This document shows positions 1 to 10,653 of a DNA stretch of 64,000 bases, one piece after another. A program made the translations under genes and the position numbers. The first letter of the stretch is position 1; the number at the start of each line of letters is the position of its first letter. The stretch spans positions 64,001 to 128,000 of IMG/VR virus record IMGVR_UViG_3300029745_000341, one strand, 5' to 3'. A model generated the notes under the pieces. That model saw only the letters and a program-made list of their open reading frames with translations, was not told the origin of the DNA and did no database searches. Origin of the DNA: a virus. Its lineage: Duplodnaviria; Heunggongvirae; Uroviricota; Caudoviricetes.

Positions 1-1000
1 TCCATGCATCAACCATCTTATCGAAAAGATTATTGGTGACAACAAAATTAGCAGCAGCTACCGGATCTGACGAAGCTATTATCATATCTGCCTCCCTCTT
101 GGCTCCGGCTTTCTGATTTTTAGCTTCCTGTATCTGACTGTCAATACGATCAATAATATCCTTATTATCCCCTACTGATTTCTTTTTTGCTTCCAATGCT
201 CCTATGTGCCTATCGTATCTTTCTACATAAGACCCAATGTATTGACTAACCAAATCCGGATTACTGAACACCGGATTGGTGGCTGCCATGTACGATGCTT
301 CTATTCTCATCTGATTCCTCATATTTTCAGATAAGTTAGCAGACACAAAATTCCTTATCTGGGAATCTGTAAGTTCATCTACATTAACTTCTATAATACC
401 ACCAGTAGGATTACCTTTAACATCATATTCTGTTGTCTGAATCTTCTTGCCTTCGTTATTTTTCCTAAAGTCACTAACCAGCTTATTTATCTCCTTAGTA
501 TAATTGACATAAGGAGAATAATGAAGACCTCCTAACCTTGATCCTGCTTTACCATCCGACCTCCATTTGTAATAAGGATCCAAAGCATGCCATTCATTAA
601 TAGGAGAATAAAGTTCAGGATGATTCTGTTTTATAGATTCTATTTCCTTCATAACCCTCTTGCCTTCTTTTGTTCCGGCAATCGCGTTAATGACCGTATC
701 ATCTAACACCGAACTGATCTCTCCTTGTATGGCTCTCGTAACACCATCAGAAGAAAGATCCACGCCTTTGAATTTTTGATTGATGTTAGCAATCACACCT
801 GACATCTTATCTTCCATATAAGCACGGGCTTCAGGCTTATCTATTTCTTGACCCATAAGATAATCTACCTGGGTATAGATCTTTTCACGAGCAGCATCAA
901 CCTTCTGCTGTTTGTACATCATAACATCCTTAACAAGATCTATGTTGTAAGGACTAACATACGGGGCATATTGCCTTAGAATACTATATTGTGAAGCCAT
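1..1000 (-). CDS. Large virion cargo/ejection-type protein, N-terminal part (runs off the window)
   Basis: Absent from the ORF track because truncated. ATG at 998-1000 overlaps the upstream TGA (TGATG) and reads MASQYSILRQYAPYVSPYNIDLVKDVMMYKQQKVD. Function inferred from position only. Confidence 0.6.
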   Translation of the reverse strand, partial: MASQYSILRQYAPYVSPYNIDLVKDVMMYKQQKVDAAREKIYTQVDYLMGQEIDKPEARAYMEDKMSGVIANINQKFKGVDLSSDGVTRAIQGEISSVLDDTVINAIAGTKEGKRVMKEIESIKQNHPELYSPINEWHALDPYYKWRSDGKAGSRLGGLHYSPYVNYTKEINKLVSDFRKNNEGKKIQTTEYDVKGNPTGGIIEVNVDELTDSQIRNFVSANLSENMRNQMRIEASYMAATNPVFSNPDLVSQYIGSYVERYDRHIGALEAKKKSVGDNKDIIDRIDSQIQEAKNQKAGAKREADMIIASSDPVAAANFVVTNNLFDKMVDAW

Positions 1001-3843
1001 CAGCTATTTCTCCTTCTCTTTTTATATTTATCTTCTTCATCATCCTCCAAGCTCTTCAAATAAGGTGTAGAATAATCACCCATATTCATCACATCCTGAT
1101 TGCCTTGAACGTAAATAATTTGACCACTTGGAAGCATTCTCATATTCGGAGCTATGGATGCTATGGTATTTAATGAAGTTCGAACATTAAACTTATTCTG
1201 TATCTCGCTGTTTATACTGTCATAATAACGAGCAAGATTTTCATCCCTTATAGCCATAGCTTTCAACAACCCAGATTCATAACGTTGCCTTTCTGCTATG
1301 TTCTTATCATCTGTCTGAACATAAGCCATTTCATTGAATCTATCAGCTTCGTTTATTTGCCTTGCGTTATTGAAATTTACTTCATTAACGTACTTGGCTA
1401 TATTGCTTCCAGCTATGGCGTTCATATTAGCCAGAATAGCAGCCCGCTGGGAGTCGGGCACGTCACCTACTGCGTCTAACTGAGCCGATGTAGCGCGGTT
1501 GAGCTCGTTGATATACTGATCAGCAGATTGAAGAACTGGGTCTATTCTCGGAGCCTGATGTCTTTCCAGACCTTCTATCTCCAAGCCTGTATCGAGCGTT
1601 CTCAGCATCTCCGGGAAGATAGGACCGAACGCCGCCGGTCTGCCCTGTCCTTTAGGTCCGTTGTCTTCAACCACCTCCTCTGTATCGGTGTCGGTTGCAG
1701 TCGTAGGCGTACTTGCTTTCGGTTTTACCTCTATCCTTCCAGGAGATCCAATCTTAGGCGGTGTAAGGCCTGGTGCTATGGGACCGGCCTCAATAGGCTT
1801 CATTTCTGGTTTAACAGACTCAAGAACGAAGTCTATTTCCGGCATTAACCCACTATCTCTTAAAGCAACAAACTTATTATAATCGGAGCCCAGAATCTTC
1901 TTAGCGGCATCAGATTTATCACCAAATAAGTCAACATAATTCTTTATCCCTTTTTCGTTTAACAATCTTTTTTGCTCTGCCGAAACAACGTCCAACCCAT
2001 AATAAGAACGAGTAGCTGTTGTCTGACCAAACTTATCATCTACGGCAAATGAATTATAAGTCTGATTCCCTCCGTAGCTTCCGGCGTCCTGGCCCCAGAA
2101 TCCGTATTCATCTCTGAATTTCTTGGCTGCATCAGCATTCGTAATAGCGCCTACATCAGCTAACGCCCACAATGCATTTAATTGCCTGTTGTATCCTTTC
2201 TGGAAACCTTCTGTATCAAAATCACCATCCGTATTGTACTTGTTAGCCCATCGGTTTATGTCGAGCAAATTAGATACCGCCTTATCATTTACCCTGCCGT
2301 ATCCTAAATTGCTTCTATGTTGGAGATTCTGGTTGGCATTGACACTGGAATCAGGATTAAGAATCTGCTCACGACCACTAACATCAGATACAGTCATATT
2401 AAGAGTTCGTCCAAATAACTGATTGATAAGCTTATTGTAGCCGATAGCATTCTTTCTAAGTTCCTCCAGCTCCTTCTGAGTAGGTCCACCTTCAGCCATT
2501 TTTCTGGTTTGCTTAACATACTCGTCATATATCCAGTTCTTAGCATCTGATTCTGCAATATTAAAAGCCTTAGCTTGTTTCTTTACCTGATTCAGATCAA
2601 CAACCCCGCCATCCCTGAAAAAAGCATCCATCTTCTCGTTACGCTTAGATTCTTCCTGTTTGCCATAAACGATTTCAGCGAAAGAACGAAATTGTGCTTC
2701 AAGCTCGTCTATCTCTTTCTGGTTTTCATTGACGTACTTGGAAAGAATAGAAGCATTAAGATTAGATGTGTTTTTGTCTTTTACATCTTCATTTTTCTCT
2801 AATCTCTTATATACACGCTCCTGATCTTCGTACTTATCAGACAAACCAATCTTCTTCTTATATCGATCAAGGAGTGTAGCATACGTATCTTTTGACGTTG
2901 CCTTAATACCATAATTTTCTCTAACGTAAGAGGCAAACTCATCATCTATCTTACGATAATCGGAAACAATATAAGCCTCTGGCAAATCAACCGGAGTACC
3001 ACCATTTTCATGTCTGTCCCCTTTGGCTTCCATAGGCCCTACGGAGTCAGGAGTCAGCACGTACTCGCCTTTCTCTATCTCTACATTCGCAGCATCTTCC
3101 ATAGACTTGGGAAGAGGATAAATATATTCGCCGGTCATATCAGACGTATCCATCTTCTGACCGTTACCTAAATTCACGCCACCACCTTCACGTTCCCACT
3201 TGATGAATTGCTGACGACGCTCCTTGGCAAGTTTTTCCCTTGCAGCCTGCTCGTCTCTGCTGGCAGCATATGCAGCAGATGAAGCCCCCATGATATTACG
3301 AGTAAGACCTAATCCTAAACTAACACCAGACAAGGCGGCTTGAGCCACATTAGCACCTATCTTATTACCGGCTCTTATCCGACCAAGGCTTGTACCGAAC
3401 ATTTGAGCCCTACTTCCAAGATCAGGCGAATAATATGGCATAGTCATAGGATCAAGAGGATTACCATCTTGGGAACGTTTTTCTTTAGAGGAATCAGCAT
3501 CAACACCACCTAAATTCATTGCATTATCAACGACTGATTTCTCTACGTTTTTAACCATGCCCCTATTATCAGCGAGATATCCTGCATATCCTGCATCATG
3601 ATTTTCAAAAAACGGATCGGATGTAGGCATACTACTAAATGGATTTATCTCCCCCTCCTCTGTTTCTAAAGTCACATCAGAAGGCATATATATATTCTGA
3701 ATATCAGATTCACCCCATTTATTAACAGGCGTTCCATAATCAAGAATAGGCTGAGTAGAGGATACATTAATATCCTGTCTCTTATCCTGAACACTACCGC
3801 CAGGAGCGAATATCGGACGATTTTTTATGATTCGTAATCTCAT
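1000..3843 (-). CDS. Putative virion cargo/ejection protein
   Basis: Long helical, Ala/Gln/Asn-rich ORF with repeated xxGG motifs (FAPGG, EREGG, FRDGG, MAEGG). ATG 3843 preferred because the track GTG start overlaps the promoter motif at 3856-3865. Confidence 0.55.
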   Translation of the reverse strand: MRLRIIKNRPIFAPGGSVQDKRQDINVSSTQPILDYGTPVNKWGESDIQNIYMPSDVTLETEEGEINPFSSMPTSDPFFENHDAGYAGYLADNRGMVKNVEKSVVDNAMNLGGVDADSSKEKRSQDGNPLDPMTMPYYSPDLGSRAQMFGTSLGRIRAGNKIGANVAQAALSGVSLGLGLTRNIMGASSAAYAASRDEQAAREKLAKERRQQFIKWEREGGGVNLGNGQKMDTSDMTGEYIYPLPKSMEDAANVEIEKGEYVLTPDSVGPMEAKGDRHENGGTPVDLPEAYIVSDYRKIDDEFASYVRENYGIKATSKDTYATLLDRYKKKIGLSDKYEDQERVYKRLEKNEDVKDKNTSNLNASILSKYVNENQKEIDELEAQFRSFAEIVYGKQEESKRNEKMDAFFRDGGVVDLNQVKKQAKAFNIAESDAKNWIYDEYVKQTRKMAEGGPTQKELEELRKNAIGYNKLINQLFGRTLNMTVSDVSGREQILNPDSSVNANQNLQHRSNLGYGRVNDKAVSNLLDINRWANKYNTDGDFDTEGFQKGYNRQLNALWALADVGAITNADAAKKFRDEYGFWGQDAGSYGGNQTYNSFAVDDKFGQTTATRSYYGLDVVSAEQKRLLNEKGIKNYVDLFGDKSDAAKKILGSDYNKFVALRDSGLMPEIDFVLESVKPEMKPIEAGPIAPGLTPPKIGSPGRIEVKPKASTPTTATDTDTEEVVEDNGPKGQGRPAAFGPIFPEMLRTLDTGLEIEGLERHQAPRIDPVLQSADQYINELNRATSAQLDAVGDVPDSQRAAILANMNAIAGSNIAKYVNEVNFNNARQINEADRFNEMAYVQTDDKNIAERQRYESGLLKAMAIRDENLARYYDSINSEIQNKFNVRTSLNTIASIAPNMRMLPSGQIIYVQGNQDVMNMGDYSTPYLKSLEDDEEDKYKKRRRNS

Positions 3844-3911
3844 ACTATCTTTTTTCACAAAGATAAGAGAAACGAACGAGAAAATCCAACGTTATGGGAT
3901 ACGTTTAAAAA

Positions 3912-4931
3912 TCAATCATGTACGGCAGACAAACCGCCCGAATCAGGGTCGTACTTAAGACCGCATGCCCGGCGATAGTTCTTAAGCGCTCTCTTGTACA
4001 AAAACAGCACCGTCTTGGAAACTATTTTCTTCATAGATTTGGTTAAAACCTCTTCTGTTGAAACAGACATCAGGCAGCTATTCAAGAACGACCTGACATT
4101 GAAACCGAACAAGATCTTCACCATTTTTCTAAACGTTCTAAAAAGATATGATGCAGAAAGAGACTTTAACCCATTGCGAACCAGTCTCTTATTCAAATAC
4201 GAAACAGCCTTTTCAGATAGACAGAGCCTATTCTTTCCTTCGCTATCTACCTCTGATGAAAACCACGAATATAAAGTGGTAGGATGTTTCTTAAGGTGAT
4301 TGATGAAGGAAGTCATTATCCCTTCTTTTAAAGCCCTTTTGTGGGCTACGCATGCAGCAATCTTCTCTTCTCTTTTTAAAGAGCTGTCAAGGCATCTAAA
4401 CACCGTCCTATCGTCTCCGATGAAATACTGAGGACGTTCTTCCTTAAACTTAGCCCGGTATACAGCATATCCTTCCTTACGAAGCATGTCTATCTGAGAC
4501 CGGATATAGAACCTTACACACTTTTCTTCAGCCTCTTGCACGCTTTTAAGATAAGGAACTGACTTTCTCCCATATCGAAGATAGTCATAAACCATAGCTT
4601 CAATAAAGTCATTATATGGAAAGAATCTCCCAAATCCAAAGTTCCAAACTATGAAACATCGCACTCTATCTTTCCAGTAATCAGATATGAGAAAGTTGCT
4701 ACAATATCTCAACTTCCTGTCTTTCTGATAGAAATGATGAGTATGCTTATCATAAAATAGATTAAAATATCTCAAATTGCCTAAACACTGACCAGATGGA
4801 CGGCGTACTACATTATACCCTAAGTTGCTGAAGCTATTGTATATAACTTCTATCGGAGAGACCTGCTCTTTCTTGAAGAGCTTGTCGTGTAACTTGTGAG
4901 GATTCATTATTTCAGTTATTTTTGTCTCCAT
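3912..4931 (-). CDS. Basic hypothetical protein, possibly DNA-binding/replication-associated
   Basis: 339-aa Lys/Arg/aromatic-rich ORF with its own TATATTTG element (~4947-4954), next to a structured non-coding block. No catalytic motif recognised. Confidence 0.45.
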   Translation of the reverse strand: METKITEIMNPHKLHDKLFKKEQVSPIEVIYNSFSNLGYNVVRRPSGQCLGNLRYFNLFYDKHTHHFYQKDRKLRYCSNFLISDYWKDRVRCFIVWNFGFGRFFPYNDFIEAMVYDYLRYGRKSVPYLKSVQEAEEKCVRFYIRSQIDMLRKEGYAVYRAKFKEERPQYFIGDDRTVFRCLDSSLKREEKIAACVAHKRALKEGIMTSFINHLKKHPTTLYSWFSSEVDSEGKNRLCLSEKAVSYLNKRLVRNGLKSLSASYLFRTFRKMVKILFGFNVRSFLNSCLMSVSTEEVLTKSMKKIVSKTVLFLYKRALKNYRRACGLKYDPDSGGLSAVHD

Positions 4932-4986
4932 ATTGTTTGTTTAGTGCAAATATATGATTTTACATAAAAAGAAGAAAATGCACTGC

Positions 4987-5030
4987 CTTGTATCCGGTTT
5001 GAGAGAAATAGGATACAAGGTTTTTTATTT
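4987..5030. terminator. Hairpin / intrinsic terminator-like element
   Basis: CCTTGTATCC...GGATACAAGG inverted repeat followed by a T-run on the + strand. Confidence 0.5.
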
Positions 5031-5241
5031 TATGACGGTTTGGATAAGAGACGGGAAAATGACCCTGAACGTAACCGTCTGACCGTCAGGAGTGGGACAA
5101 CAAATCTTGAATTAAAACTACGCCTATAAATAGTCTCCGTTTTCCTTAATATTAAGACCATTTTTAATGATCTTACTCATTATATTATTTATATTATTTT
5201 ATATACTTTACCATTTATTCATATAATTGTTTGCAGTGAAT

Positions 5242-5420
5242 GAACTTAACGACCGAAGGGAGTTAAGTGAGTGAACGGATTGACAAATTACTTTTTTCGT
5301 CTATTGTATTGTTTGCCTAATTGTGTTAAAAGATTGAGTATCGTGACCGAAGGGAACGATGCGAAAAAACTTATAATATTTAAAAACGACTGAACCTATC
5401 GACTGAAGGGAGATAGGTGA
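5242..5420 (+). repeat. Three 29-nt hairpins GA-N7-GA-CY-GAA-GG-GA-N7'-GA
   Basis: Copies at 5242-5270, 5336-5364 and 5392-5420. Stems ACTTAAC/GTTAAGT, GTATCGT/ACGATGC and ACCTATC/GATAGGT differ in sequence but all pair. Confidence 0.85.
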
Positions 5421-5681
5421 TGGAGTGACGTTAATAATTATATTAGGTAGCCAGTGGAGAATTAGGCAGGCTGGTAGGCGAGACGGGCGTCCATGCCTGT
5501 CAGGACAGTGGAAGTACGTAGGTCTGTTCTGTTAAACAAAGGCGATGATAGTTCCATCCTTCACGAAATCGCACAGAAAAGCCGGATTATCTTGATGACG
5601 TTCTTCAACCTTCGGTATCCGTGTAACGAGTCTCAAATCCGGCTTCGCTTTATTAATATGAGGAAATAAAATAATATTGTT

Positions 5682-6788
5682 CTAATTATCGGTGACGCCT
5701 TTAATGCGAAGCTGAATATTGGGAAGCACGGCATTAATCAAAGCCATTTTCTTATCCTCTTCGCTTTCTTTTTCATGCTGTTTATACATCATGCTGTAAT
5801 CACTGTCATCACCATCCTTTTTCCCGTCTAACGTCAGTAAATGATTTATGATGTCCTTACCATACGTTTCAGTCCATGTACGGAATCTCTCTTCCTCGGA
5901 CTGTCTCTCCTGGGACGGGACTTCCGGGTTAGGAAGGGCGGCTGCCACTTCTACCTCTGGAAGTGTTACCGATGCTGCTATTTCAGCATCATCTCCGAAT
6001 CCCATTTGACCATACGAAGATACGGAATTTTCTTCAATTTCCAAACCAAGATTTTTAGCAACCTCCATAGCATAATTATAACGGTCATCGTTTCTTATAA
6101 CACTCTTATGAGGACGTCCTGCTCCTTGGTTCCAAGCTACTACAGCATCTTTCAGGTTATCGGCGTTCATAAAGTCCTGCCGGCTGTAGTTGTAATACCC
6201 TGGTCCTTCTTTTCCTTTTCTTGTGTATAAGAAATTAGAATATCCGGTTTTCCCTTCGTATTCATCAGCTAAAAACTCAAGTTGGTCTTTGAATGTTGGT
6301 GTAGAATGACCTTTCTTTTTGGCGTGCTTGAATAGCTTATCCATACGCTCATTATGCCATTGCTGTATGCCGTATGATGTTCTGTTGTCTCCGTATATGT
6401 CATCTTTAAGACCGGATTCAGCCATGAGATTACCTATGATAGCAAGCGCCTGTATCTTGGACATGCCGCGCTTATTAGTAAAGTATTCGTATGCTTCACG
6501 TTGTTTATTTACAACACCACCTTCTTCGTATTTCCTTACAAACCTTTTAGGTAAAGCCTTGTCATTATTTCGAAGAACACTACCTTTCTTAGGATCGTAT
6601 TTGATGCGTTCCCTTATTCTAAGAGGAACATCCCTTTCCGGTATGATGTCTTCCGCTATCTTTTTTCGGCTAAAATCATAATCATCCTTCACATCCAACA
6701 TACCAGCATCCGGATCCCATCTTACACTGAAATTCTTCAACGCACCTAATCCGGAAGCTTCGTTTACTTTTTTCAAAATTGTCACCAT
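5682..6788 (-). CDS. Phage tail-lysozyme-domain protein (probable C-terminal part of a frameshifted gene)
   Basis: AIIGNLMAESGL...SYGIQQW matches the Phage_lysozyme2-type motif. Overlaps the upstream ORF across an A6 run at 6768-6773. Confidence 0.7.
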   Translation of the reverse strand: MVTILKKVNEASGLGALKNFSVRWDPDAGMLDVKDDYDFSRKKIAEDIIPERDVPLRIRERIKYDPKKGSVLRNNDKALPKRFVRKYEEGGVVNKQREAYEYFTNKRGMSKIQALAIIGNLMAESGLKDDIYGDNRTSYGIQQWHNERMDKLFKHAKKKGHSTPTFKDQLEFLADEYEGKTGYSNFLYTRKGKEGPGYYNYSRQDFMNADNLKDAVVAWNQGAGRPHKSVIRNDDRYNYAMEVAKNLGLEIEENSVSSYGQMGFGDDAEIAASVTLPEVEVAAALPNPEVPSQERQSEEERFRTWTETYGKDIINHLLTLDGKKDGDDSDYSMMYKQHEKESEEDKKMALINAVLPNIQLRIKGVTDN

Positions 6789-7938
6789 ATACCTCTTCTC
6801 TAAATGGACTTACACCTTCATTTACTAAAATCCATTTTCCTGGATTTTCAAATATATTTTTATTTAGTTTATCAAGGACCTTCTTATAATCTCTTATTTT
6901 TCGTTTACTTTTTTCATCAGCGTCCTTATATGCCTCATCAAGCATGTTGTTCATATACTCTTTATCTAATAAAGATTGTATCAAAATAGCTTGTTCTTGA
7001 GGCAATCCTACATACTGAGCATCATCATCATCGTCATCAAAACGATACTTGCTCGCCGGTAATCTACTTATATCTCCATCAGTGTAAGCCTTCCACATTT
7101 TTTCTTCAAAATCTGTGGCTGTATCTTCCCCTGATCGCTCCCTATTAGGATCCAACATTCGTTTCACAGTAGGAATAAAATCGGCTATTAAACTAATAGG
7201 ATCAGTGTCTAATATTGGATTAACGGATTCATACCACTTATCAGGATCAGCGTTATTGGATATACCAACTGATTTTATATTCGAATCAGACACCCTGACC
7301 TTATCTCCGTCATATCCTCTACCTACATAACCTGTATCACCGTATTTTGCGGCTACATGACGAGCGTCTTCATACTTTGAATCATTAGTATCTTTTTCTA
7401 TAGATTCGTTCTCTACAGGCTTGTCTTCAATCAGGACATAGTTACTGTCATCATCCACCGTCCAGGGCTGGTCTGTCGGCGTAGAGAACACCCGGCGCTC
7501 GAAGGCACGGCGCTTCTTCTGGCCGCCCATACCTTTCTCGTTTTCATTGTGATTTATTTCTTTCACCGCCTTATCATAATCACCTTCTTTAAGGTATTTG
7601 AAAAGCATCGGGCTTTTAGAATACTCTGGTCCTCCTGTATTGTAAAACAAGCTAAACAAAGCATCTCTCTGATTATTGTTTAGATTTTTGAAATTAGGAG
7701 TTCTTCGTATAAATTCCGGAACAAACGTATTAACTACACCTTCAAATTCCTTATCGGCCTCTTCTACTGTTATACCATTCTTGTATTTTTTAAGAAGATG
7801 AGGAAGATGAAATCCGTACCCGATTGTTATATTCCCCTTCTTGTCGTCATATAATTCAGGCTCAAACTTTTCCCACGATTTCAAATATTTTAGTATATTT
7901 TCTGAGGGTTTCCAATCTGATTTATTCTTCTTTGCCAT
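6682..7938 (-). CDS. GH24 (T4-like) lysozyme-domain virion protein (N-terminal part)
   Basis: LKSWEKFEPELYDDKKGNITIGYGF (E-x8-D-x5-T) and NQRDALFSLFYNTG are GH24 muramidase motifs. Confidence 0.75.
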   Translation of the reverse strand: MAKKNKSDWKPSENILKYLKSWEKFEPELYDDKKGNITIGYGFHLPHLLKKYKNGITVEEADKEFEGVVNTFVPEFIRRTPNFKNLNNNQRDALFSLFYNTGGPEYSKSPMLFKYLKEGDYDKAVKEINHNENEKGMGGQKKRRAFERRVFSTPTDQPWTVDDDSNYVLIEDKPVENESIEKDTNDSKYEDARHVAAKYGDTGYVGRGYDGDKVRVSDSNIKSVGISNNADPDKWYESVNPILDTDPISLIADFIPTVKRMLDPNRERSGEDTATDFEEKMWKAYTDGDISRLPASKYRFDDDDDDAQYVGLPQEQAILIQSLLDKEYMNNMLDEAYKDADEKSKRKIRDYKKVLDKLNKNIFENPGKWILVNEGVSPFREEVYGDNFEKSKRSFRIRCVEEFQCKMGSGCWYVGCEG

Positions 7939-8447: not shown

Positions 8448-10082
8448 TTAAATCTTAATCTTCTTAATTTCATCAATCATATTCTTATATCCGCAGAACT
8501 TGCTGTTAATAACATCGAAGATAGATTCTGACCAGCCAGCTATGTTCAAAATATTAGATCCTTTGTAAAACATCTCACTTCCATATCCTTGAATAGAAAT
8601 AGAAACGATTTTGCAATTTGGATTCACTTTCTTGAACTTTTTCAAAAGTTCAGCGAATTTACCATATTCATAATTGGAACTTTTTTCCCATACAATAGAT
8701 TCGCCATCTCCTATCTGCATATCTGAAATAACGTACAAGTTATCTACTTTTATCTTATCTTTGACGCACTTTTCCAAGAATGCAAAAAGACCGTTTTCAG
8801 TAGCACCACCGCATTCTTCTCCGGCAGTAAAAGATTTTTTGTTGTTCCATAAAACACCTCTGCTTCTATCATATTCGTAATTGATAAGTTTGTCACCAAA
8901 CATACCAATAAATATGTCAGGAAGCACAGATGCTATCATACAGCCAAACAAGTTACCAATGACAGCCGTATTTGTTTTGCTAAAGGCAGATACCTCAGAA
9001 GATCCTCCCATATCTCCACGTACAGAGCCAGAGTGGTCAATCAGGATAGCCGACCGCCCCTCCAATACCGGCAGGTTCTTGCAGGAGATGGTTATGGCTT
9101 TCTCCAACGCATCTAAAATCTTATATTTGTCACGCGCTGTTAATTTGGCTCGTTTCTTATCCGACTCAAATACAATATCATTTTTGGAACCATCAGTGCT
9201 CATATTTTCAACCTCTTTGAAAGCTGAAGCAAAACGGAAAGGAAGCATCTTAGAATTAAGTACCTTCTCTTCTATTGTGAGCTGCCTACAAACTTCATCT
9301 ATTTGATCAGGTGCGTATTTGATTATGTTTACAAGGTTACGAACCATATTAAAAATAGGCATACCTTTTACATTAGAAACCACGTCCCGAATAGCGCCAC
9401 CTAAAGCTTCTTTCTTTTCCTTATTGTCTTTCTTATCCTGTCCGGCTTTAGACATTTCTTTTTCAAGAATCTTGCTTTCGTATAATCCAGACAAAGACCG
9501 ACCTTCTATAAGGTACTGGAAAGCCGTTTTGTTAGCCTGATTGCCTTTAGGGTGAAATAAGTTTACGAGGTCAACCATAGTAATGACCCTACTGTCCATC
9601 TTGTACTTGTCAATCCGATACGGATCAAGACCTTCCAAAGCCGTCTTAAATCCTTTCTTAATAGCGCTGGATATTCCTCTTAACTTCTTTGGATTTTTGT
9701 CGTTAAGAGCCGCATAACAGCCAAGGATTTCGCTCATATCATCAGGACGCATAATGATCTTGTTATAGAACCTTGAAGCCCATTCCTTACCCGATGCTTT
9801 GCTGGCAAGGACAGAAGCCATAAGATGCGTTACCGACCTAAGCTTTCCTTCTTTCCTGACATACAATGCTGTTTGTGCTCCGAAATACGGATCTACCTGA
9901 TCCATAAGGTTCTTAATTCTTTCTACTTTATCTTTTTCTTTCTCATAATAAGAATCGGATAACATAGTAGTCATTACCGTAGCTACCAACTCTTCTTCTG
10001 CGTTAGGCTTATACGCCTTCTCTCCCATGTGATTCACGATCGTAGGTTTAACACCTTCATCCTTTTTGTTAAACTTTCCCAT
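8448..10082 (-). CDS. rsr: Ro60/Rsr-like TROVE-domain RNA-binding protein with C-terminal vWA domain
   Basis: TROVE hallmarks (VNHMGEKAY, DSYYE, ALYVRKEGKLRS, RPDDMSE, DLVNLFHPK, MVRNLVNI, SKMLPFRFASA) and vWA MIDAS (LIDHSGS, GGAT, ISDMQ). Adjacent Y-RNA-like genes support the call. Confidence 0.92.
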   Translation of the reverse strand: MGKFNKKDEGVKPTIVNHMGEKAYKPNAEEELVATVMTTMLSDSYYEKEKDKVERIKNLMDQVDPYFGAQTALYVRKEGKLRSVTHLMASVLASKASGKEWASRFYNKIIMRPDDMSEILGCYAALNDKNPKKLRGISSAIKKGFKTALEGLDPYRIDKYKMDSRVITMVDLVNLFHPKGNQANKTAFQYLIEGRSLSGLYESKILEKEMSKAGQDKKDNKEKKEALGGAIRDVVSNVKGMPIFNMVRNLVNIIKYAPDQIDEVCRQLTIEEKVLNSKMLPFRFASAFKEVENMSTDGSKNDIVFESDKKRAKLTARDKYKILDALEKAITISCKNLPVLEGRSAILIDHSGSVRGDMGGSSEVSAFSKTNTAVIGNLFGCMIASVLPDIFIGMFGDKLINYEYDRSRGVLWNNKKSFTAGEECGGATENGLFAFLEKCVKDKIKVDNLYVISDMQIGDGESIVWEKSSNYEYGKFAELLKKFKKVNPNCKIVSISIQGYGSEMFYKGSNILNIAGWSESIFDVINSKFCGYKNMIDEIKKIKI

Positions 10083-10111
10083 TTGTTGTTGTTTTCTTTA
10101 AAGTGTTATAC

Positions 10112-10142
10112 AAAAAAAGCAGTGATATTACTACCACTGCTT
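10112..10142 (-). terminator. Intrinsic terminator between the RNA cluster and the TROVE gene
   Basis: Minus strand AAGCAGTG-GTAGTAATAT-CACTGCTT running into a U7 tract. Confidence 0.75.
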
Positions 10143-10172: not shown

Positions 10173-10302
10173 AATGAGGGAAAAGCTGAAGTTAGTGTAA
10201 ACAATGAAATAATGGATTTGAACCATCGACCTATACTTTAAAAGAGTATCGCTCTATCCATCTGAGCTAAATTCGAAGTAACTAACCCCATCACCACTCA
10301 TT
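10173..10302 (-). ncRNA. Y-RNA-like RNA carrying a non-permuted tRNA-Lys(UUU)-like domain
   Basis: Outer stems AATGAG/CTCATT and TGGGGTTAGT/ACTAACTTCA enclose a D arm (GCTC AGATGGATA GAGC), anticodon arm (ATACT CTTTTAA AGTAT) and T arm (GATGG TTCAAAT CCATT). No CCA. Confidence 0.8.
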
Positions 10303-10320
10303 AGTTTTTATATATTTCAA

Positions 10321-10445
10321 ACAGAGGAAAAACGGAGCCGGACAAAATGAAAATATTGGATTCGAACCAATGAAAAGTATTATTACAGAATACCGCGTTA
10401 TCCACTACGCTAATTTTCGAAGTAGCCGAACTCCTCACCATCTAT
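10321..10445 (-). ncRNA. Y-RNA-like RNA carrying a non-permuted tRNA-Tyr(GUA)-anticodon domain
   Basis: Outer stems ATAGA/TCTGT and GGAGTTCGGC/GTCCGGCTCC enclose a D arm (GCGT AGTGGATA ACGC), anticodon arm (GTATT CTGTAAT AATAC), T arm (ATTGG TTCGAAT CCAAT) and acceptor-like GAAAAT/ATTTTC. No CCA. Confidence 0.8.
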
Positions 10446-10458
10446 ATATTTTATTAAA

Positions 10459-10592
10459 ACAGGGAGAACCTGGAATGTGTTTTAATATGAAAGGAGGTTT
10501 TGATCTACCAACTGATCTAATTTTTCTTACATGAAAAATATAGGACTCGAACCTATGACACAAACCGAAGTATCACCTTCCATCACCACTGT
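10459..10592 (-). ncRNA. yrlA: YrlA-type Y RNA (circularly permuted tRNA mimic)
   Basis: Order is T arm (ATAGG TTCGAGT CCTAT), closed acceptor stem (ATTTTTC ATGTAA GAAAAAT), D arm (GATC AGTTGGTA GATC), on a long terminal stem upstream of a Ro60 gene. This is the YrlA architecture. Confidence 0.85.
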
Positions 10593-10622
10593 CTTACATT
10601 ATAATCTCTCTTGATTACGATG

Positions 10623-10653
10623 CAGATATAGACACTAAAATATGATTTACAAA
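10623..10653 (-). promoter_or_regulatory. Putative Bacteroidota sigma-A promoter for the Y RNA-Ro60 unit
   Basis: Minus strand TTTG-N19-TATATCTG, one mismatch to TTTG-N19-21-TAnnTTTG, ~30 nt upstream of the first RNA. Confidence 0.5.

Follow-up and report, generated by a model that had tools for sequence, protein, structure and literature searches.

The window, by which is meant the whole 64,000-nucleotide stretch of DNA analysed, belongs to a 172,858-base record whose source genome is an epsilon crAss-like gut phage, with csAssE-Sib as an epsilon crAss-like relative. On the minus strand of the window lies an array of three RNA units sharing a 5' motif, in the order permuted YrlA-type unit, Tyr-GUA unit and Lys-UUU unit, followed by a Ro60/TROVE gene. 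The pattern GGUGA(U/G)G...UACUUCG, in its full minus-strand form, occurs at only these three places in the record. The features are listed below, with bit scores from the covariance model R1 described further on.

8448..10082, minus strand: Ro60/TROVE protein, 544 aa (Pfam TROVE 5.5e-14; PHROG 850)
10110..10142, minus strand: hairpin resembling a terminator, with a U tail, separating the array from the Ro60 gene (z = -5.7)
10173..10302, minus strand: complete predicted RNA of the Lys(UUU) unit, made up of the scaffold and an unpermuted D-anticodon-T cloverleaf
10187..10196, minus strand: 3' strand of the middle scaffold stem, pairing with 10281-10290
10206..10210, minus strand: 3' strand of the acceptor-like stem, pairing with 10270-10274 at 4 of 5 positions and followed by scaffold
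10233..10249, minus strand: anticodon arm, with loop CUUUUAA at 10244-10238, anticodon UUU at 10242-10240 and closing pair U31-A39
10274..10282, minus strand: conserved junction GUUACUUCG, which contains YUAY and whose last G opens the acceptor-like stem
10289..10302, minus strand: 5' strand of the outer stem, which has a bulged U and the motif GGUGAUG and is the predicted Ro60 site, pairing with 10173-10180
10315..10451, minus strand: Tyr(GUA) sister unit, with cloverleaf at 10347-10419, 6-bp acceptor and short variable region (102.7 bits)
10452..10599, minus strand: permuted-cargo sister unit of YrlA type, in the order T arm, closed acceptor, D arm (38.9 bits)
10623..10653, minus strand: promoter-like pair upstream of the array

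The Ro60 protein is 96.5% identical to the 'Ro sixty-related protein' of csAssE-Sib, and by profile it matches the phiLo Ro60 (9L5Y/9KOP, 3e-15), the nearest solved structure to this protein family. The Lys unit ends 90 nt before the TROVE reading frame on the same strand, within the 4 kb applied to YrlA RNAs. In the csAssE-Sib record the two tRNA-like units are annotated as plain tRNA-Tyr and tRNA-Lys, and a 99% copy is a tRNA-Lys in GenBank; the csAssE-Sib genome paper counts six tRNAs and proposes Bacteroides, Parabacteroides and Porphyromonas as hosts, and a term search of its main text returned no 'Ro sixty' (PMC11054128). The terminator-like hairpin shows a compensatory change in one printed variant (5 loci). 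Its portion at 10117-10142 (minus strand) contains CAGUGGU, resembling the 5' motif of the YrlA-type unit, and one may speculate that Ro60 binding at this hairpin could regulate read-through into the Ro60 gene. Upstream of the array, TTTG-N19-TAnnTTTG at 10623..10653 (minus strand) corresponds to what we take to be the Bacteroidota-type promoter consensus; the pair has one mismatch in the window (TCTG at 10623-10630, against the TTTG of nearly all relatives) and is exact in 13 of the 14 commonest haplotypes of relatives. A scan for sigma-70 promoters found 8 sites where 8.1 were expected, and the array had none of them. The junction motif of the Tyr unit also deviates in the window, at 10431 (minus strand), in a form found in 1 of 119 haplotypes, and given these two deviations the array may be weakened in this strain.

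Several observations concern the record as a whole. Both of its ends look like a second, temperate-type phage, with small and large terminase, portal, a RecT-like protein and a toxin-antitoxin pair lying outside the window at G000:C1:167064-170608 and 770-7078 (L658, L659); because of these temperate-type genes and the 151-kb length of csAssE-Sib, the record may be nested or chimeric. An attachment-site role for the Lys unit is unlikely, since it lies at 74 kb of the 173-kb record, far from both ends. Within the window, at 5682-7938 (minus strand), two overlapping reading frames, one of 418 aa with a lysozyme domain and one of 368 aa with a tail-type domain, stand where csAssE-Sib has one tail lysozyme of 806 aa, possibly reflecting a frameshift in the source record. 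Of 21 RNA runs listed, the 4 examined held contigs with flat depth, possibly DNA.

The body of the Lys unit was called as tRNA-Lys(ttt) by ARAGORN at 10203-10276 (minus strand), and its core matched the Rfam tRNA model with 53.3 bits (E 1.9e-10); R1, whose seed includes the unit itself, gives it 115.8 bits. Its arms are canonical, with a D arm of 4 bp and anticodon and T stems of 5 bp each (the T stem including one G-U), a 7-nt anticodon loop and a 5-nt variable region. An earlier note on this DNA had described such arms, a CUUUUAA loop with UUU at 10240-10242 and an acceptor stem of GAATT/ATTTC with a mismatch, continuing into a scaffold, and the description was accurate in each respect: the acceptor-like stem, GAAUU/AUUUC, has five positions, one of them U·U. 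The two sister units and the wider family go unmentioned in that note. Measured as a tRNA-Lys gene, the unit has the arms and the anticodon, and pairs at only 4 of the 7 positions of a 7-bp acceptor, with U73 as discriminator where two host-like tRNA-Lys have A73; these two features count strongly against its being a translating tRNA. Positions 73-76 read UGUU, so that CCA is absent as the earlier note had said, but this is weak evidence alone because ARAGORN shows no complete CCA on the record's four ordinary tRNAs at 138 kb either.

Outside this body, the flanks of the unit form two stems, a middle one of 10 bp and an outer one of 6+2 bp, with pair probabilities of 0.54-1.0, giving the long end-pairing stem with bulge and internal loop that marks Y RNAs as a broad class. 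The outer stem, whose 5' motif is common to all three array units, shows two-sided changes at 8 of 9 pairs. A stem comparable to the middle stem was found in all 32 non-redundant units co-folded singly, and it is poorly resolved in alignments (45-53% paired); the conservation of the junction GUUACUUCG is partly by construction, because the search patterns included this motif. Taken alone, the unit folds at lowest energy (-28.4 kcal/mol) into something other than the cloverleaf (-23.1), the pairs of which have probabilities of 0.03-0.11, and folding of the sequence by itself does not make the unit stand out (z = -1.17); because the lowest-energy fold differs, the cloverleaf rests on covariation in relatives. 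The earlier note's Y-type scaffold, beside Ro60, and its view of a body that is probably uncharged are both supported. The Lys unit is confirmed as a real feature, predicted to be a cloverleaf of tRNA-Lys(UUU) type enclosed by an outer stem that covaries.

Relatives beyond the close clade were collected from distant Ro60 loci and by RNA-pattern scans independent of Ro60, using patterns in which the junction motif and the first part of the D arm were set and the outer stem and anticodon arm left free. With R1, units scored 72-128 bits, seed members by construction, and ordinary tRNAs at most 67; the relatives comprise at least 43 non-redundant units, nearly always on Ro60-bearing phage contigs. 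Beta crAss-like phages, cr111_1 for example, carry the two-module RNA too, as do larger phages with a Ro60 of only 26-30% identity. In an alignment of 30 units, 27 of the 31 model pairs showed two-sided changes, including all five pairs of the anticodon stem; the covariation score was reached by none of 500 shuffles, and slid controls gave 0.15-0.27 against 0.71. A second, model-fitted alignment of 29 units, partly overlapping the first, gave the same result, the slid controls of the two together spanning 0.12-0.27. By the RNA pattern alone, 8 of 12 unit-bearing loci had Ro60 within 3 kb among the matches listed (the 12 being drawn from 80 full-flank loci among those matches), and TROVE was present in 12 of 15 whole records checked, the three misses being fragments 11-19% complete. 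Among the matches listed, Ro60 was also found at 15 of 135 other pattern loci, all 15 of which, judged by contig name or length, lie on contigs already counted as unit-bearing. At the level of sequence comparison, these results show a two-module anatomy and its link to Ro60.

The same searches set bounds on the family. A scan with the 72%-identical Ro60 P0024 returned the same close clade only, and INPHARED blastn with two units gave a full-length match only in csAssE-Sib. Bacterial units were found neither in 6 GTDB Ro60 loci nor in 5 Ro60-bearing Bacteroidales genomes, where 150 candidates were scored each and the best reached 66.6 bits, the level of tRNAs; the loci of crAss001, phage G, a Vibrio phage and HGTV-1 held no unit above 51 bits. 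In crAss001, downstream of TROVE gp96 (L185:4687-5122), lie unannotated GUUACUUC-bearing RNAs with T-arm or permuted cargo, at 33-38 bits, and this cultured phage is a tractable system for the scaffold. At L465:2462-3444 four units stand in a row before Ro60; two have His-like AUG and Asn GUU cargo, one carries a short hairpin and one is permuted in the manner of YrlA. Many of the larger-phage Ro60 loci (L268-L270, L273-L275, L277, L281-L285) carry only short (80-100 nt) or permuted units at 25-35 bits, and two of them have full units several kb off (L596, L578).

To see what the family keeps, 43 units of less than 80% similarity, taken from 95 matches listed, were parsed automatically, with a few wrong or 8-nt loops. 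The acceptor 5' strand in these listed units is 1 nt long in nine, 3 nt in one, 5 nt in two, 6 nt in sixteen, 7 nt in twelve and 8 nt in two, with one misparsed; seven perfect acceptor pairs occur in 8 of the 43, CCA at positions 74-76 in 5, and CCA together with a 7-nt strand in 1. The CCA status differs even between close relatives (L278, L287). U33 and a purine at 37 are each present in 41 of the 43 and A34 in only 2, and bases 36 and 37 agree by rule in 33 of 33 cases (G36-G37 19/19, U36-A37 14/14), while the variable region is 3-6 nt in 42. About 20 anticodons are represented (21 triplets parsed), with Gln-UUG in ten of the 43 listed, Pro-UGG in four and Lys-UUU and Asn-GUU in three each. 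Anticodons switch between near-identical units (Ile/Lys/Arg at 96-98% identity, Gln/Leu at 97%), and in a His/Ser switch on a 91% identical unit base 37 changes along with base 36; CUUUUAA itself is found on five different anticodon stems. In four units (L328:3696-3831, L300:2518-2653, L312:3699-3838, L333:2429-2564) the D arm is not preceded by an acceptor strand and the T arm is followed by a small hairpin, with the anticodon arm kept. Two others with CCA at 74-76 carry UCA anticodons (L328:1598-1737, L611:2406-2546) and would be called opal suppressor or selenocysteine tRNAs by tRNA finders. In terms of sequence, then, acceptor-stem length is shown to be unconstrained, with natural loop rules and anticodon switching; varying acceptor length and rare CCA, set against constant U33 and the 36/37 rules, mean that the family preserves its anticodon loop but not a chargeable end. 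A kept elbow and loop without a chargeable end argue against a translating tRNA for the family, and strongly so for the Lys unit.

Closer to the window, 267 loci with the anchor reduced to 137 distinct haplotypes, which are related and not independent. The Lys loop reads CUUUUAA in 126 of 130 parsed haplotypes (CUUUCAA in 3, CAGUUAA in 1), on two stem alleles with 118 and 8 haplotypes. Free drift of the loop in homologues, which the earlier note had named as evidence against its proposal, was therefore not seen, either here or on the five stems of the wider family. The mean minor-allele fraction of the unit is 0.012, equal in the loop and elsewhere, against 0.077 at third codon positions of Ro60; the Lys loop is thus not drifting freely, yet is no more protected than the rest of the unit. 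In the second slot, that of the Tyr unit, GUA is present in 112 of 119 haplotypes on three unlike stems (GCA in 5, GUU in 2), and in 66 of the 119 positions 32-33 have changed from CU to AG. That GUA is kept despite G33 fits reading of the anticodon by a protein better than decoding. With a wider anchor (141 haplotypes), Lys cargo was present in 136, Tyr-type cargo in 122 and YrlA-type cargo in 132; Tyr cargo was absent with the other two kept in 16, and Lys cargo was absent in 5. Cargo is exchanged and lost within the array of close relatives, as recombinants (Tyr cargo on Lys 3' scaffold) and cargo-less scaffolds reveal (L023:2276-2415, L053, L058, L435:3187-3274).

The earlier note had interpreted the unit as a decoy for Lys-specific anticodon nucleases, naming PrrC and AriB. 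The constraint on the loop agrees with this, but the Lys specificity is confined to this slot of a family with about 20 anticodons. For AriB, the exact loop proved not to be the relevant feature: the E. coli enzyme cuts in the stem, at U36AAUC/A41 (the slash marking the cut), U39A abolishes cleavage and Gln-UUG is not cut (PMC12409363). The Lys unit reads A39 G40 U41 and does not present this site. A39 is also absent from all 48 Bacteroidales tRNA-Lys(UUU) arms compared (34 G, 14 U; arms from 40 of 61 genomes), and because of this the commonest Lys allele (118 of 130) is not a faithful host copy; the minor stem allele has the host-like C31-G39. AriB-family genes were found in 29 of 151 Bacteroidales genomes, and 3 of 3 tested match PADLOC AriB. 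PrrC cleaves a bare 17-nt Lys stem-loop, prefers a weak stem and needs the wobble modification (PMC3014915). The Lys unit offers a CUUUUAA loop on a predicted 5-bp, not-too-stable stem with four A-U pairs, and a sequence context for modified U34 and A37. Of the two nucleases named, PrrC would thus fit better, because it takes a bare stem-loop with a weak stem, and the E. coli AriB site is missing (A39).

Something reads the elbow and the loop of the family's units. The best explanation, held tentatively and a little short of even confidence, is that the Lys unit, uncharged and docked on Ro60, serves as a decoy for nucleases reading the anticodon arms of tRNAs, or inhibits them competitively. 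The three units would be transcribed as one array, the outer stem would be bound by the neighbouring Ro60 at its predicted site, host enzymes would modify the unit, and nicked RNA would be stabilised by scaffold and Ro60 together. The target, the weakest part of the proposal, may be a loop-reading Lys nuclease of the PrrC kind; toward an AriB of E. coli type the unit could only be a non-cleaved binder. The sister units would widen the panel, with a GUA loop in the Tyr unit and the elbow only in the permuted unit.

This decoy explanation gains from the covarying anatomy, the Ro60 linkage, the unchargeable end, a loop under selection, the GUA kept with G33 in the second slot and the AriB-family genes of Bacteroidales. 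It gains also from two precedents: for YrlA the untested idea was put forward that it inhibits an anticodon nuclease by competition (PMC7790460), and phage Bas63 counters Ppl defence with a Ro60-like gene, with the suggestion by the authors that neighbouring tRNA genes may be Y RNAs (PMC11482910). It loses from the second precedent as well, since no sequence resemblance to this Ro60 could be detected in Bas63 gp130, and the Bas63 tRNA cluster holds no unit and lacks the scaffold. Further against it, A39 is the base of escape from E. coli AriB and is foreign to host-like arms, the commonest anticodon, Gln-UUG, is uncut by that enzyme, and published phage tRNA counter-defence is attributed to translating replacement tRNAs and not to decoys (PMC11555353, PMC12409363). 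The equal conservation of loop and remainder, the missing Tyr and Lys cargo of some haplotypes and a lowest-energy fold other than the cloverleaf also count against it, as does the consideration that the loop rules could be partly inherited from source tRNAs.

Among the alternatives, an unlikely one that nevertheless fares best is a tether or adaptor for RNA decay or repair, in which Ro60 would be joined to PNPase or an RNA ligase and the anticodon would guide the particle either to enzymes that handle tRNA or to ribosomes that have stalled at the codon it matches. Tethering to PNPase is the established role of Y RNAs (PMC4201824), the Ro60 and Yrl RNAs of phage phiLo bind and dampen host PNPase (PMC12135203), and the intact elbow, U33 and 36/37 rules would suit such an adaptor. 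However, a tether needs no anticodon and the permuted unit already offers the elbow, the RtcB and Rnl2-type ligase families had no match in the phage's own record, and the G33 alleles of the second slot fit decoding poorly.

An improbable reading is that Ro60 protects the unit as a precursor, which RNase P, 3' trimming and CCA addition would turn into a nuclease-resistant, translating tRNA-Lys. A YrlA of M. smegmatis with a 7-bp acceptor is indeed cut by RNase P and gains CCA (PMC4201824), and A39 is the escape base of T5 (PMC12409363). The record has no other tRNA-Lys(UUU) for its third most used codon, AAA (43.5 per 1000), and some listed units do have seven perfect pairs or CCA. The released Lys tRNA would however keep only 4 of 7 acceptor pairs and U73, nine of the 43 listed units have no acceptor strand to process, and Tyr, Leu and Ser anticodons occur without the long variable arm that bacterial tRNAs of these types carry. 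The last point also bears on another improbable reading, a sponge for host aminoacyl-tRNA synthetases or for TrmD, t6A enzymes or MnmA that would retune translation or stress signalling: units with Leu or Ser anticodons but no long arm would not be bound by synthetases, and a phage would gain little from lower charging of its third most used codon. In favour of the sponge, the 36/37 rules are the sequence contexts of the m1G37 and t6A37 enzymes, and most anticodons of the family presumably belong to anticodon-reading synthetases. Very improbable is that the anticodon arm is a relic of a tRNA gene ancestral to the Y RNA, with only scaffold and elbow of importance, for which the wide variation and switching of anticodons, the relic-like decay of CCA, the loss of cargo in some haplotypes and a few unnatural or 8-nt loops may be cited, against anticodon stems that covary at 5 of 5 pairs, A34 in only 2 of 43 listed units in AT-rich DNA, 36/37 rules without exception and a minor-allele fraction well below that of Ro60 third codon positions.

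In summary, as far as sequence can tell, the Lys unit is a real, unpermuted, anticodon-displaying Y-type RNA of a widespread phage family. No description of this family was found in the literature searched, of which Sim and Wolin 2018/2020, Burroughs and Aravind 2016 and supplement file 6 of PMC4201824 did not form part, nor in passages of PMC7824862, PMC12386605 and PMC12282133. The annotated tRNA-Lys and tRNA-Tyr of csAssE-Sib and tRNA-Gln of cr111_1 are probably not translating tRNAs, and misannotation of this kind affects inferences on codon usage and recoding, the two units with UCA anticodons being a case in point. With one scaffold and about 20 anticodons, the role of the tRNA module in bacterial and phage Y RNAs can be addressed directly by anticodon swaps. 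If the units are decoys, they are a second phage route against tRNA-targeting immunity, besides replacement tRNAs and repair enzymes. A broader proposition, possible and more doubtful than the decoy role of the Lys unit, is that Bacteroidota phages including crAss-like ones make a modular Ro60-RNA anti-defence particle with one handle and swappable, uncharged tRNA look-alikes matching the host tRNAs under attack; were it true, a decoy system against tRNA-cutting immunity would lie hidden in annotation as ordinary phage tRNA genes.

Among known systems, YrlA (RF02553) is alike in its position beside Ro60 on the same strand, its Ro60-type stem joined to a D/T-arm module and a YUAY-like junction. 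YrlA is permuted, with T before D, a closed acceptor and no anticodon loop (PMC4201824; Wang et al. 2018, 10.1101/312249). This order is seen in the sister unit at 10452-10599 alone, on the same scaffold, and at 10484-10583 that unit has an Rfam YrlA match that falls short of the gathering score (30 bits against 69; E 3e-4). The Lys unit differs, with D-anticodon-T order, a natural 7-nt loop and scaffold in place of the acceptor end; its GGUGAUG agrees with GNCGAAN0-1G of YrlA at 5 of 7 positions, short of the YrlA motif, and RF02553 gave no match to it at E up to 5. Yrn1 of Deinococcus radiodurans also has a stem-loop in the anticodon position, between D-like and T arms, but its loop has 6 nt and it possesses neither a full D arm nor a variable arm (PMC4201824), unlike the 7-nt loop, 4-bp D stem and 5-nt variable region of the Lys unit and the roughly 20 anticodons of its family. 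The b7a-tRNA of Burroughs and Aravind 2016 is said to resemble a true tRNA and to occur occasionally beside Rsr, and is described as a partner of band-7 proteins and RtcB (via the Discussion of 10.1101/312249); it may overlap the present family. In phiLo, a phage Ro60 is likewise accompanied by upstream Y-like RNAs, Yrl1 and Yrl2, which are hairpins with a CGAA motif acting on PNPase, and the word anticodon is absent from the main text of that paper (PMC12135203). Phage counter-defence tRNAs include T5 tRNA-Lys against PARIS, tRNA-Tyr against retron-Eco7 and tRNA-Lys against PrrC170 (PMC12409363, PMC11555353); the array resembles them in its Lys-UUU and Tyr-GUA anticodons and in A39, as in T5 tRNA-Lys, whereas they are thought to translate and the Lys unit has a defective acceptor stem set in a scaffold. 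Judged by its predicted structure, the Lys unit works like a Y RNA and stands outside both YrlA and the tRNA genes.
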